39,704 nt of DNA from Eledone cirrhosa (taxonomy: Eukaryota): positions 1-39,704 of the forward strand of contig CAXHJY010000501.1 in assembly GCA_964016885.1 (NCBI GenBank). Reading direction: 5' to 3'. Below are positions 12,589-39,704 of this stretch, piece after piece. The number at the start of each line of letters is the position of its first letter. Position 1 is the first letter of the stretch. The position numbers and the translations under genes are program-made. Below the pieces are notes generated by a model that was not told the origin of the DNA, did not search any database, and saw only the letters and a list, made by a program, of their open reading frames with translations.

Positions 12589-14155
12589 TTAGAGCATTGA
12601 GTAGTGGTTGAAATGTGTTTCCTTATTGGTACGTTGGATGAAAGTAGTGTTGTCTATGAATTTGTAAATGGGGGAAATTTTAAAGTTTGGATGTTGGTTG
12701 AGAGCACAATTGGCGATATGTTCACTAAATACAATCTTTCTGTATTCCTGTATTTTAATTTGTGATTTATGGACAATCATACGTTGACGGAGGCTGTTTT
12801 TTGTCTGTCCTATATAGTGCTCTTGACAACCTGAGCAGGTCAAAACATAGATAAGGTTTTCAGATGCGCATGTAAAGTTGTGTTTAACTCTGAAACGTTG
12901 TCCTTGTTTAAAATGGAATGTTGAACCTTCTATTATATTTATGCATATGCCACAGTTGGGCCTTCCGCATTTTGTTACTGTAGGGTTCATTGTGAGGGTT
13001 TGTTGGATTTTGGCTTCTGTGAGGATGTTTTTTATGGATTTGGGTTGTCTTTTGCTCTTTATGATGTTGTGTGTTTGGAGGATATTGTTCATTCTTGGGT
13101 CTCTTTTTTTGTAAAGGAATGTTCTGGAGGATGGTGTCGAATGCCTCATTGTTGAGGGGGTTGTGTGTGGAGATGTATGGTAGAGTTTTTTGTTGCGGTT
13201 CATTCCTGGGTTTGAGGTGTCTGAGTTCCTGGATGTCTAGTTTTAGGGCACGTTGGAATCCATTGGTGATTAGGGATGGTGGGTAGTTTCTGCTGATAAG
13301 TGTGTTTTTTAATTCTTCTACTCGTGTGTAGCATGTGTATTTATCTGAAACTATTGTGCAGATCCTTCTGGCTAGGTTATACGGAATTGCCATTTTGGTG
13401 TGTCTAGGGTGGCACGAGTTGAATGGAAGGTGTTGTTTGGAGTCTGTGGGTTTGTAGTATATGTCTGTTTCTATTATGTTACTTGTTTTCTTGATGAGGA
13501 TGTCGAGGAAAGGGAGTTGTTCATGGCTGTAATCCATTGTGAATTGTACGTTTGTGTTCAGTCAATTCAAAAGGCTTTTAAACTCAAACAGTCTATTTAT
13601 ACTTTCATGCCAGAGGATGAAGAAGTCGTCCAGATATCTCTTCCAGTTCTTTTCTATGTGTTGGTAGAAGAGGTTGCCGTATTAGTCTAGAACTTTGCGG
13701 TAGAGAATGGTTTCCAAATATCCCATGACAAGGTTGGCGTATGAGGGGGCCACTTTCGTGCCCATGGCAGTCCCAGATTTCTGTCTGTAGCATTTGGCAT
13801 TGAATTCGAAGAAATTGTTTTCCAAGATGAATTTGAGTCCCTCCAACACAAATTCTTTAGGGATGCGCTGTGGAAGTTCACTAGTGAAATTTTCCATCCA
13901 GAATTGTATTGCCTCTATACCTAGGTTGTGTGGGATATTTGAATATAAATTGATGACATCAAAGGTTACTAGTAGGGTATGTTCGTTATTGAGTGTTGTT
14001 GGGAGGTGGTTGAACATGTCAAGGTTGAACATGTCAAGCTATTTATGTTTTAGGAAAGGTTTAAGCAGAATATCTAGGAAGTTGCTTAGGCGGTGGGTTT
14101 CACATGTGGTGCCTGCTATTATGGGTCTTAATTTAAGGTCATCAGGAGGGGCGGT
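12589..14155 (-). mobile_element. Decayed, 5'-truncated Penelope-like retroelement (RT, Cys-rich linker, C-terminal GIY-YIG; Neptune-like)
   Basis: RT motifs LRPIIAG, LVTFDVINLYSNIPH, YRQKSGTAMGTKVAPSYANL, RYLDD, LPFLD and YYKPTD...SCHP; linker CGRPNCGIC; endonuclease FTCASENLIYVLTC..C.EHYIGQT..SLRQRM..H. Disabled by in-frame stops at 13682-13684 and 13562-13564 and a frameshift near 13105-13112. Confidence 0.95.
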
Positions 14156-14170
14156 CGCTCTCTCTCTTTC

Positions 14171-19312: not shown

Positions 19313-19387
19313 AACGCCTGATGAAATCGCCTAGTCTTGCATCATAATCGGATGATAGCGCTAAGCCATCGAAATATGTATAGTGCT
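19313..19387 (+). ncRNA. Type I hammerhead-like motif with an extended, decayed stem II
   Basis: CTGATGA (19318-19324), stem II with an inner ATCAT/ATGAT helix, GAAA (19371-19374), stem III ATA-TG-TAT-A, and a weak stem I. A (TA)n tract begins ~55 bp downstream. Confidence 0.55.
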
Positions 19388-25440: not shown

Positions 25441-25708
25441 ACTGTGCTGCTGCGTCGACTCCGGCTGGGTGTCGACTCTGTTCTCCGGGAGGATATATAT
25501 ATATATTCGGATCTAGCTCTCGAAACGCCCGGAGCTCAGCCGTCGGGGTCCTGAATCTCTTCCCTATATATATATATAATGAAATACTGTTGGCTTCTTG
25601 CTCACAATAATTTTTATACTTTTCATTTATATATATATATATATATATATATAAATGTGAGAAAAACCACAGATGTGAGAAAAACCACAGACCCTCCATC
25701 TCAACTCA

Positions 25709-25746
25709 CCTTTTGAAAAGCAGAAGAACTGCGAAACCGGTAAAGG
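25709..25746 (+). ncRNA. Minimal type I hammerhead ribozyme, U3-A8 core variant
   Basis: CCTT-TTGAAAA-GCAG(AAGAA)CTGC-GAAA-CCGGT-A-AAGG: perfect stems I and II, palindromic stem III ACCGGT, GUA cleavage triplet. Confidence 0.7.
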
Positions 25747-25869
25747 AACCAAATAAATATATATATTTTTTTTTTAAATAAGACTCCAGTTACATTTTCG
25801 CTTTCATCTTTTTTTCTTTATACTTTCACTCGGTTATTTTTCAATTTGTAAAAAAAACCTCACTTTCTA

Positions 25870-29268
<3,399 letters not shown>

Positions 29269-30027
29269 TTGGAAAAGAGGATGCTCTGAAACTCCCGTAC
29301 TCCTTTCCCTCCGGGGAAACTCTCGTGGCATCTAACAACATCAGAGACTTGGGAGTAACCTTGGACAGCAACATAAGCTGGACCACGCATATAAGCACCA
29401 TTATCCTTCTCTTCTCTACTTTTGCCCGACCACACCTTGAATACTGTTGTCCACTGTGGTCTCCCCACACGAAACAAAGTATCATGAAACTTGAAGCTCC
29501 TCAAAGGGCAATCACGAAAAAGATAGATGGCATGTCAGACCTTGACTACTGGGGTCGATTAGAAAACCTAAAACTTTACTCACTCCAACGTCGCCGTGAG
29601 CGTTATATTATCTGCATGATGTGGAAAATGTTCCGTCATCACTGCCCAAATGATGTTGGCATCGCCTTCAAGATACAGCCAAGGCTTGGGCCCCGTGCTA
29701 TCCGTCCCATTCAAAAATCTAAATCTCAACTCATAACAACAATACGGCACAATTATTTCACCTCAATCGGCCCTGCTCTCTTCAACATCACACCAGGACA
29801 CGGCAAAACAGAAACTGACCGCACAAAATTCAAGAAGTCTTTGGACAAATTCCTCCAAGTAATCCCGGACAAACCACCCACACCCGGATACGTCTCCGCA
29901 AACAGTAATTCTCTTCTCGAATGGGCCATGGTGACCAAATCCTGAATTGAAAGACTTCGCCAGGTGGTGCTATTAAGTTAGACATGGCCTGGGCCAATAC
30001 TGGCCAAAACATTTCAAAGTCAAAGTT
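29269..30027 (+). mobile_element. CR1-group LINE 3' fragment, copy A (69-bp internal deletion)
   Basis: [47 protein letters not shown]; stop at 29943-29945, short 3' UTR, (TCAAAG)2 tail. Confidence 0.9.
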
Positions 30028-31652
<1,625 letters not shown>

Positions 31653-32018
31653 TATTTTGAAACTTTTTCATTATTTACTAAACCTTGTTTATATTTGTTC
31701 TGGCTCGTTAATTTATTAACCCGCCATTGAACCACACTGGCACTTGGTTGGACAATACATGCGTACCTTAGCGCCTTGTGCGTGAAAGGACGTATTTCAT
31801 ATTACTACTACCTCCACAAACGTTGAGAACAAACCGGGTCATTCCGACTGCTGCTGATAACAGCGGTGGCTAGTTTGACCTACCTCCTTTTGCCTCTATC
31901 TTTACTACGGCCCTTGATAAACCTGTTCTACATCATCCACTCTCATCCCAGGAACAGTCTTTGATAGCGCTAGTTTGTGATTTAAATTCAGGAATTTTAT
32001 ATTCTTTGAATGAAAAGA

Positions 32019-32102
32019 ACCTTCTGACGAGAATCTCTCTTTGCAACGAAGGCCGTATGGCCTACGTTTTATTTTTGGGATTCGAAACCGATCGGTAAAG
32101 GT
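32019..32102 (+). ncRNA. Type I hammerhead ribozyme (intact core)
   Basis: Stem I ACCTT/AAGGT; CTGACGA 32024-32030; stem II GAATCTC/GGGATTC with an inner AGGCC-GTAT-GGCCT hairpin; GAAA 32084-32087; palindromic stem III ACCGATCGGT; predicted cleavage after GUA at 32097. Confidence 0.9.
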
Positions 32103-32501
32103 AACTATAGTAGGTAAAGTCAATTTTTTTAATTTATTTTGAAACTTTTTCATTATTCACTAAACCTTGTTTATATTTGTTCTGGCTCGTTAATTTATTA
32201 ACCCGCCATTGAACCACACTGGCACTTGGTTGGACAATACATGCGTACCTTAGCGCCTTGTGCGTGAAAGGACGTATTTCATATTACTACTACCTCCACA
32301 AACGTTGAGAACAAACCGGGTCATTCCGACTGCTGCTGATAACAGCGGTGGCTAGTTTGACCTACCTCCTTTTGCCTCTATCTTTACTACGGCCCTTGAT
32401 AAACCTGTTCTACATCATCCTCTCTCATCCCAGGAACAGTCTTTGATAGCGCTAGTTTGTGATTTAAAATTCAGGAATTTTATATTCTTTGAATGAAAAG
32501 A

Positions 32502-32585
32502 ACATTCTGACGAGAATCTCTCTTTGCAACGAAGGCCGTATGGCCTACGTTTTATTTTTGGGATTCGAAACCGATCGGTAAAGGT
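32502..32585 (+). ncRNA. Type I hammerhead ribozyme, second copy (one stem I mismatch)
   Basis: Same core as 32019-32102. The stem I 5' strand is ACATT (C>A at 32504). Predicted cleavage after 32580. Confidence 0.85.
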
Positions 32586-32652
32586 AACTATAGTAGGTAA
32601 AGTCAATTTTTTAAAATTTATTTTGAAACTTTTTCATTATTTACTAAACCTT

Positions 32653-32691
<39 letters not shown>

Positions 32692-32696
32692 TATAC

Positions 32697-32729
<33 letters not shown>

Positions 32730-32774
32730 CATACATATATATACATATATAACATATATATATATATATACATA

Positions 32775-32805
<31 letters not shown>

Positions 32806-32834
32806 CATATATATATATATATACATATATATAC

Positions 32835-32865
<31 letters not shown>

Positions 32866-32883
32866 CATATATATATATACATA

Positions 32884-33710
32884 TTGGAAAAGAGGATGCT
32901 CTGAAACTCCCGTACTCCCTTCCCTCCGGGGAAACTCTCGTGGCATCTAACAAACATCAGAGACTTGGGAGTAACCGTGGACAGCAACATAAGCTGGACC
33001 ACGCATATAAGCAGCAAAGTTGACATGGCCCGCAGAATGTGTTCCTGGATCCTCAGAACCTTCCAGTCGAGAGATTCCCGCACCATTATCCCTCTCTTCT
33101 CTACTTTTGCCCGACCACACCTTGAATACTGTTGTCCACTGTGGTCTCCCAACACGAAACAAAGTATCATGAAACTTGAAGCTCCTCAAAGGGCAATCAC
33201 GAAAAAGATAGATGGCATGTCAGACCTTGGCTACTGGGGTCGATTAGAAAACCTGAAACTTTACTCACTCCAACGTCGCCGTGAGCGTTATATTATCTGC
33301 ATGATGTGGAAAATGTTCCGTCATCACTGCCCAAATGATGTTGGCATCGCCTTCAAGATACAGCCAAGGCTTGGGCCCCGTGCTATCCGTCCCATTCAAA
33401 AATCTAAATCGCAACTCATAACAACAATACGGCACAATTATTTCACCTCAATCGGCCCTGCTCTCTTCAACATCACACCAGGACACGTCAAAACAGAAAC
33501 TGACACACAAAATTCAAGAAGTCTTTGGACAAATTCCTCCAAGTAATCCGGACAAACCACCCACACCCGGATATGTCTCCGCAAACAGTAATTCTCTTCT
33601 CGAATGGGCCATGGTGCCCAAATCCTGAATTGAAAGACTTCGCCAGGTGGTGCTATTAAGTTAGACATGGCCTGGGCCAATACTGGCCAAAACATTTCAA
33701 AGTCAAAGTT
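32884..33710 (+). mobile_element. CR1-group LINE 3' fragment, copy B (undeleted)
   Basis: Same ends as copy A; retains [23 protein letters not shown]; carries small frameshifting indels. Confidence 0.9.
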
Positions 33711-36566
<2,856 letters not shown>

Positions 36567-37322
36567 TTGGAAAAGAGGATGCTCTGAAACTCCGTACTCC
36601 TTTCCCTCCGGGGAAACTCTCGTGGCATCTAACAACATCAGAGACTTGGGAGTAACCTTGGACAGCAACATAAGCTGGACCACGCATATAAGCACCATTA
36701 TCCTTCTCTTCTCTACTTTTGCCCGACCACACCTTGAATACTGTTGTCCACTGTGGTCTCCCCACACGAAACAAAGTATCATGAAACTTGAAGCTCCTCA
36801 AAGGGCAATCACGAAAAAGATAGATGGCATGTCAGACCTTGACTACTGGGGTCGATTAGAAAACCTAAAACTTTACTCACTCCAACGTCGCCGTGAGCGT
36901 TATATTATCTGCATGATGTGGAAAATGTTCCGTCATCACTGCCCAAATGATGTTGGCATCGCCTTCAAGATACAGCCAAGGCTTGGGCCCCGTGCTATCC
37001 GTCCCATTCAAAATCTAAATCTCAACTCATAACAACAATACGGCACAATTATTTCACCTCAATCGGCCCTGCTCTCTTCAACATCACACCAGGACACGGC
37101 AAAACAGAAACTGACCGCACAAAATTCAAGAAGTCTTTGGACAAATTCCTCCAAGTAATCCCGGACAAACCACCCACACCCGGATACGTCTCCGCAAACA
37201 GTAATTCTCTTCTCGAATGGGCCATGGTGACCAATCCTGAATTGAAAGACTTCGCCAGGTGGTGCTATTAACTTAGACATGGCCTGGGCCAATACTGGCC
37301 AAAACATTTCAAAGTCAAAGTT
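36567..37322 (+). mobile_element. CR1-group LINE 3' fragment, copy C (same deletion as A)
   Basis: Shares the deletion and diagnostic SNPs with copy A. Confidence 0.9.
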
Positions 37323-37519
37323 ATATACATATATATATATTTGTTCAATTAACACTTAGAATTTAATATTCTATCATACTATTTCATTATAATACCATTA
37401 TATATATTTTAAAGGATTGTAAATAAAACGAGTAAATCAGACAAAGTTGGAATTCCTCTTATTAATATAATCTTCTATACACAATCATTCACACCCGTGT
37501 ATATTTACCTATCTATATC

Positions 37520-39244
<1,725 letters not shown>

Positions 39245-39704
39245 TTGGAAAAGAGGATGCTCTGAAACTCCCGTACTCCCTTCCCTCCGGGGAAACTCTC
39301 GTGGCATCTAACAACATCAGAGACTTGGGAGTAACCGTGGACAGCAACATAAGCTGGACCACGCATATAAGCAGCAAAGTTGACATGGCCCGCAGAATGT
39401 GTTCCTGGATCCTCAGAACCTTCCAGTCGAGAGATTCCCGCACCATTATCCCTCTCTTCTCTACTTTTGCCCGACCACACCTTGAATACTGTTGTCCACT
39501 GTGGTCTCCCAACACGAAACAAAGTATCATGAAACTTGAAGCTCCTCAAAGGGCAATCACGAAAAAGATAGATGGCATGTCAGACCTTGGCTACTGGGGT
39601 CGATTAGAAAACCTGAAACTTTACTCACTCCAACGTCGCCGTGAGCGTTATATTATCTGCATGATGTGGAAAATGTTCCGTCATCACTGCCCAAATGATG
39701 TTGG
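39245..39704 (+). mobile_element. CR1-group LINE 3' fragment, copy D (like B; cut by the window edge)
   Basis: Undeleted; shares the GTGGAC, CCCAAC, CTTGGC and AACCTG variants with copy B. Confidence 0.9.

Follow-up and report, generated by a model that had tools for sequence, protein, structure and literature searches.

Evidence for a hammerhead retrozyme family, probably Penelope-mobilised, at (TA)n sites of the Eledone cirrhosa genome

On sequence grounds, a non-coding tandem repeat that carries a hammerhead motif in each unit and occupies hundreds of (TA)n sites in the genome of Eledone cirrhosa is a non-LTR retrozyme family. That this retrozyme is mobilised by Penelope-type machinery we hold with high confidence, and we consider it probable that it is a non-autonomous element copied by a Penelope-like reverse transcriptase (RT)/GIY-YIG protein, for which a circular monomer RNA of 483 nt is the likely template. 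The retrozyme class and its Penelope link have already been published and the element itself is no surprise; the value of the family lies in making the insertion mechanism and the role of the hammerhead testable. With subfamilies that look very young, insertion ends that are exact, arrays marked by their haplotypes and a young candidate helper, the family allows circle and linear multimer to be tested against each other directly, with a 483-nt RNA and one protein.

The array in the window and its hammerheads

The window is the whole 39,704-nt stretch of contig CAXHJY010000501.1 that was analysed. In it the array extends from 31653/4 to 32660, corresponding to 2.09 units, and is flanked on both sides by TA/CA microsatellites, the left target at 30027–31653 and the right target at 32661–32884, the latter lying between the array and an unrelated LINE fragment. 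The units at 31655–32136 (482 bp) and 32137–32620 (484 bp) differ by four substitutions and two 1-base gaps, and self-BLAST of the array gave 98.7% identity over 526 nt, bearing out the non-coding 482–484-bp unit in ~2.1 copies described in the first-pass annotation; the longest frame entirely within the array has 83 amino acids (stop-to-stop frames). Counting unit position 1 as the base after the predicted cut, the array (31654–32660, + strand) is a single-arm insertion that is 5'-truncated at unit position 38 and stops at a fixed end, position 79 of the next unit, which matches the earlier placing of its start ~37 nt past the cut and of its end 42 nt into a third unit.

Each unit contains CTGACGA (at 32024 and 32507), a 7-bp stem II, GAAA, CCGATCGG and TA, with GAAACCGATCGGTA at 32084 and 32567, and this core pattern occurred twice in the window and not once in 100 shuffles. 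From the motif positions, cuts are predicted after 32097 and 32580, at the 483-nt spacing that had been proposed, and the predicted cut-to-cut monomer (32098–32580, +) of 483 nt carries four variants absent from the first unit; its GC content, like that of the unit, is 39%, below the 50% retrozyme bound. The first type I hammerhead (32019–32102, +; GUA cut predicted after 32097) is composed of stem I (32019–23/32098–102, 5 bp), CUGACGA (32024–30), stem II (32031–37/32077–83) with an inner hairpin at 32050–63, and GAAA (32084–87). The second (32502–32585, +; cut predicted after 32580) has the same anatomy, with an A at 32504 that breaks stem I (ACATT versus AAGGT). This mismatch is atypical, as ACCTT/AAGGT forms stem I in 427 of 459 motif matches (partly overlapping genomic loci), and hammerhead 2 folded worse than hammerhead 1 (z of -1.7 versus -2.9). 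The view that every unit holds a full type I hammerhead stands for the core and the three stems, with stem I of hammerhead 2 as its weak point.

Stem III has only 3 bp and is closed by the palindrome CCGATCGG (32088–32095 and 32571–32578, +), for which pairing in a dimer is predicted: the two-motif duplex reached -18.6 kcal/mol against -1.9 kcal/mol for the hairpin. By this prediction stem III would be of the dimer-acting type, weak as a hairpin but strong in the duplex form. In an older subfamily CCGATCGG is replaced by CCGCGCGG, still palindromic, with 272 genome matches. Across subfamilies, 97.4% of the helix cells were paired and six pairs had changed on both sides in 16 motifs, chosen by hand among 82 distinct ones so as to represent the subfamilies; since these sequences are related and an insertion breaks the palindrome in 4 of the 16, we take this covariation as support rather than proof. 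Identity to the window in 30 old copies was 92% over stem I and CUGA, compared with 61–63% in mid-unit. The hammerhead looks as if it were under selection, a reading that these comparisons support but do not prove. The circular monomer folded at a z of -2.6 against 60 shuffles, stem I being absent from that fold, which we did not count as evidence. The Rfam search suggested in the first-pass annotation left the array unmatched at E<=10; for the whole window, the 150 matches listed of 385 were to miRNA/snoRNA models and lay below their cut-offs, and those displayed with alignments fell on microsatellites. The core pattern had no match in a metagenome scan.

Insertion ends, arms and relation to Penelope-like elements

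The copy-number check proposed earlier yielded a multi-locus family, with 590 exact junctions between unit position 79 and (TA)n across the 3.0-Gb genome, where the ribozyme core was matched 1,234 times. The 40 scored of 1,759 candidates contained 208 matches, 31 junctions at position 187 were counted using the letters of the youngest subfamily, and 20 loci with an isolated hammerhead were all family copies. Identity among subfamilies spans 99% down to 72%. A 485-nt subfamily is 88% identical to that of the window, and one of its insertions holds 10 identical full units, with identical units at another locus, so that two subfamilies look very recent. The old, 72%-identical subfamily is likewise tandem, and the units of three older arrays differ by 2–5 substitutions on average, consistent with ageing.

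Throughout the family, arms stop 79 or 187–195 nt past the predicted cut, at TATA-like words, and their 5' truncation points vary. In the window, fixed 3' end 1 (TTTATA/T, unit position 79; a presumed RT start) lies at 32654–32660 (+) and is joined to (TA)n, internal copies of its word occurring at 32170–32176 and 31688–31694 (+). Fixed 3' end 2 (TTCATAT, unit position 187; the presumed second start), at 32278–32284 and 31796–31802 (+), is not used as an end by the window copy. Between the two ends lies a 108-nt 'tail' (32177–32284, +), whose first half is 85% conserved in the old subfamily, versus 61–63% beyond it. That half also resembles a second tandem family with a 459-nt period. A hairpin after end 1 displayed no compensatory change in four sequences.

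Among the 40 best-matching young insertions, 26 had two inverted arms that meet with their 5' sides, and each of these paired end 79 with end 187–195; ten of the 14 single arms stopped at 79, three at 187–192 and one at 120. An LTR-internal-LTR layout was found in none of these 40. A second set comprised 99 loci from the first 100 listed end-79 junctions, chosen solely by that junction. Here an inverted partner arm was present in 50 loci, two of them cut by the locus edge, and 47 of the 48 fully seen partner arms ended at 187–195, the remaining one at 79. The far flank was TA-like in 87 of 97 loci, the near flank being part of the selection, and the arms, 409 nt long in the median, began at points scattered along the unit. 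Their 5' ends were mildly enriched near the cut (12/99 and 8/47 within -10..+12; p 0.004–0.04, windows chosen post hoc), and of the 20 near-cut ends 2 lay no more than 1 nt from the cut, 5 falling on a TATA word; we rejected clustering at the cut as weak, post hoc and confounded by the TATA word and the palindrome.

Because the ends are fixed family-wide at 79 and 187–195 and the 5' ends are spread over the unit, the window copy is an ordinary single-arm insertion, and its apparent 'permutation' is a fixed 3' end combined with 5' truncation. The expectation of variable permutation points thus failed, only the 5' start being variable. Nor does the case for an RNA circle that had been built on the endpoints of this copy hold as stated, as position 79 is a fixed end and the 5' start one of many truncation points, and an uncleaved tandem transcript predicts a more-than-unit-length copy equally well.

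In none of the 99 loci did an arm run into a coding Penelope element; long arms continued as further units, up to 10. Penelope-like protein matches lay upstream in 3 of the 99 loci, two on the arm's strand; across the loci the upstream room had a median of 2,970 nt and was less than 1,500 nt in 27. Two apparent attachments were rejected: at L259 the unit is separated from the coding element by TA and an inverted arm, and at L271 the coding element has its own motif/end and a TA tract before the array. The lack of attachment in 99 loci argues for a retrozyme rather than a plain pLTR. Of the annotated alternative, tandem pLTRs of a Penelope element, the plain-pLTR part falls away and the Penelope-type insertion signature holds, so that the two alternatives largely merge; the same signature narrows the suggested mobilisation by Penelope-like or LINE RTs to Penelope-like machinery, against LINE.

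Penelope-like RT and GIY-YIG domains are abundant in the genome (14,924 and 10,597 candidate places). One coding element, L236, carries Pfam RVT_1 and GIY-YIG and has its ends on TATA words that abut (TA)n, +82 or +150 past a hammerhead-like motif of its own; opposite arms pair both ends in at least 8 loci of one set and in 4 of 12 of another. Its copies are young in appearance, 145 of 145 scored being 98–100% identical over 264 residues and 25 having a 775-residue open frame, and its linker C-x4-C-x2-C fits the Neptune/Nematis motif as given in the main text of 10.1101/2021.04.23.441226. Coding elements form partial tandems in this genome. The hammerhead of the L236 terminal repeat has a U3-A8 core (UUGAAAA) and a CCUU/AAGG stem I as in the retrozyme family. 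A BLAST search of 80 Penelope-like loci with two versions of the unit and a search of 93 such loci with a 48-unit profile brought up nothing beyond neighbouring retrozyme copies and a weak match to the second tandem family; a helper with a homologous terminal repeat was absent from these 93 loci, out of >10,000 candidate places. L236 is therefore a candidate helper only, since its anatomy and age fit, yet homology to the unit was lacking in the 93 loci. In the window itself, the 3' end (+150 site) of a young L236-type element, joined to (TA)n, lies at 25654–25876 (+), and a broken Penelope-like element, its RT and following GIY-YIG spread over three frames, lies at 12592–14170 (-), with a decayed hammerhead-like motif downstream and relatives that also have inverted arms.

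Template of the insertions and competing explanations

The nature of the template was approached through 40 young insertions with 206 pieces and 85 full units, homopolymer columns 22–42 and piece ends being excluded. Divergence per 100 nt rose from 0.157 differences within an arm to 0.356 between arms and to 0.704 between insertions; lineage markers were fixed within the insertion in 36/39, and 20 of 21 multi-unit arms, across 12 haplotypes, were homogeneous at marker columns. Fifty-one of 56 private variants were singletons, one was partial and four were fixed in all covering units, three of these on both arms. Genome-wide checks of three of the four placed 136A four times, all in L031 (4/4 units, both arms), 110T seven times, all in L033 (7/7 units), and both full-context occurrences of 446A in L040 (3/3 units, both arms). 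The cut-site junctions were length-exact in 125 of 125 cases, two with substitutions. One haplotype per insertion together with length-exact junctions points to one monomer read repeatedly, and hence to a circle; repeated seamless copying of one monomer, likely a circle, fits the haplotypes best, and we lean towards a circular monomer as the main template.

Mosaic insertions also occur (L042, L046, L050, L058, L062 and L033), for instance with 438A in five of six units of L058, 447T/450C in one L042 unit and 333T in two of seven L033 units, and the second unit of the window has four variants missing from the first. In the young subfamily (L031–L065), the marker combinations 15G, 21G, 204T, 261C and 436G fit no single tree, hinting at recombination between templates.

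In the cycle that we propose, tandem copies would be transcribed, two hammerheads would pair via the stem III palindrome to excise a monomer, and a host ligase would close it into a circle; RtcB closed the RNA of other retrozymes in vitro (PMC7229834, main text). The helper would nick both (TA)n strands and prime at unit position 79 on one and 187 on the other, probably helped by TATA microhomology, and each RT would travel round the circle 0.1 to 10 times before stopping. The far ends of the two cDNAs would then be joined into an inverted pair, or one arm would be joined to the target, as in the window. The main text of PMC11167929 describes for the Poseidon element of anole two internal RT starts that bound a tail and the extension of both target strands in vitro; the microhomology priming proposed here differs from the non-homologous start reported there. 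Whether every insertion is a fossil left by a single RNA circle that two Penelope-like RTs read simultaneously we regard as evenly balanced, and we are just as divided over its corollary, that both nicked (TA)n strands prime at the two fixed internal sites and roll up to ten times. If true, this would provide genomic evidence for the rolling-circle step proposed for animal retrozymes and assign the hammerhead of pLTRs a role that in vitro work did not find.

The most serious competitor, which we rate as possible though clearly less probable than the circle, is a linear uncleaved multimer transcript as template, for the same family and helper type, with a hammerhead that matters little for insertion and a homogeneity that comes from homogeneous parents or, on the same tentative footing, from later slippage and conversion. 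For Poseidon in vitro, hammerhead cleavage was dispensable and unprocessed RNA was used, indeed as the dominant substrate (PMC11167929, main text), so linear multimers can be templates, and eight of nine Xenopus retrozyme dimers were without cleavage in vitro in the text of bioRxiv 10.64898/2026.07.22.740005. Seamless cut-site junctions fit a multimer equally well, a few mosaic insertions are present and the coding Penelope-like elements here also stand in partial tandems. Against it, 5' truncation (median arm 409 nt) would shrink the arrays in each round, yet homogeneous arms of 5–10 units exist in several haplotypes, and 136A, 110T and 446A, two of which span both arms, have no parent in the assembly; that parent array could be absent from a single assembly. 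A cleaved linear monomer on which the RT, having reached the 5' end, repeatedly jumps back to the 3' end of that molecule or of one like it would account for one haplotype per insertion and for the mild, post hoc enrichment of 5' ends near the cut (12/99, 8/47). Template jumps usually leave gained or lost bases, as is known from R2, and with all 125 junctions length-exact and just two of 20 near-cut ends within 1 nt of the cut, five being on the TATA word, we consider this explanation improbable.

We give even less credence to the unit being merely the terminal repeat of a coding Penelope-like element, derived from 5'-truncated insertions. Its ends, tail, inversions and target are as in coding L236, and its stem I (CCUU/AAGG) and distance to end 1 resemble that element; on the other side, long arms enter more units and never an ORF, the 72%-identical old subfamily is tandem as well, and the 93 Penelope-like loci hold no homology. 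An ancient origin of the unit from a Penelope-like terminal repeat is nevertheless likely. The least credible explanation is DNA-level recombination spreading a satellite, or a SINE-like element carried along by the adjacent LINE, which the tandem form and a LINE fragment 225 bp away could suggest, since the insertions are dispersed, their 3' ends fixed at two points and their 5' ends variable, and the self-BLAST matches listed include no similarity between unit and LINE fragment.

Comparison with known systems and neighbouring repeats

A circle-templated, PLE-driven cycle was proposed for non-LTR retrozymes by Cervera and de la Pena 2020 (PMC7229834), and the main text of Li et al. 2026 (bioRxiv 10.64898/2026.07.22.740005) argues for a retrozyme origin from pLTRs and calls the mechanism unresolved. 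Like the metazoan non-LTR retrozymes portrayed in the main text of PMC7229834, the present family has non-coding tandem units with a type I hammerhead each, a GC content <50% and dispersed dimers to multimers, and it occurs alongside Penelope-like elements. Its 483-nt unit is above the 150–450 bp given there but within the 51–972 bp of bioRxiv 10.64898/2026.07.22.740005. It differs in that target duplication cannot be discerned in (TA)n. In the main texts of these papers we found no retrozyme described as having two fixed ends, paired arms or a haplotype particular to each insertion; the family may already have a name.

With EN+ Penelope-like elements of the Neptune/Nematis type, as presented in the main texts of 10.1101/2021.04.23.441226 and PMC11167929, the family shares 5' truncation, partial tandems, an inverted 5' arm, a tail on one end only, a microsatellite/AT-rich target and a hammerhead upstream of two ends. 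Unlike them, it has no ORF, reaches up to 10 whole units and has ends on TATA-like words that match the target, and its tail measures 108 nt versus 30–40 bp in EN+ Penelope-like elements (68 nt in coding L236). The hammerhead core is the canonical C3-G8 in the retrozyme, whereas L236 has the U3-A8 variant, which resembles a Schistosoma variant in the text of PMC4209133. A short, palindrome-capped stem III with expected dimer cutting is shared with newt/axolotl satellite 2 and dimer-acting hammerheads as described in PMC7229834 and PMC4209133 (main texts); in contrast to satellite 2, the stem II region is long (53 nt, inner hairpin), Rfam gives no match, and activity is predicted only.

Hammerhead repeat families seem common in this genome. 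The second tandem family, with the 459-nt period, was seen at L237:6510-7419 and has, just after end 1, a GTTCTGG...CCATnGAACCACA motif in common with the retrozyme family, possibly a helper-binding signal as far as the shared letters suggest. Further hammerhead-bearing repeats, one with a 511-nt period, occur at L246:7768-8300 and many other loci, and at least six other types of motif are found repeatedly in flanks, in many cases as inverted pairs. Within the window, other CTGAnGA words lie in small repeats at 19318, 19806, 20445 and 14619 (-). Four near-identical 5'-truncated LINE 3' fragments, which gave no Pfam match and which a motif tentatively places in the CR1 group, sit in TA/CA tracts at 29270–30026, 32885–33709, 36567–37519 and 39245–39704, apparently as a higher-order duplication, and the fragment at 36567–37519 runs into the apparent 3' end of another Penelope-like family.
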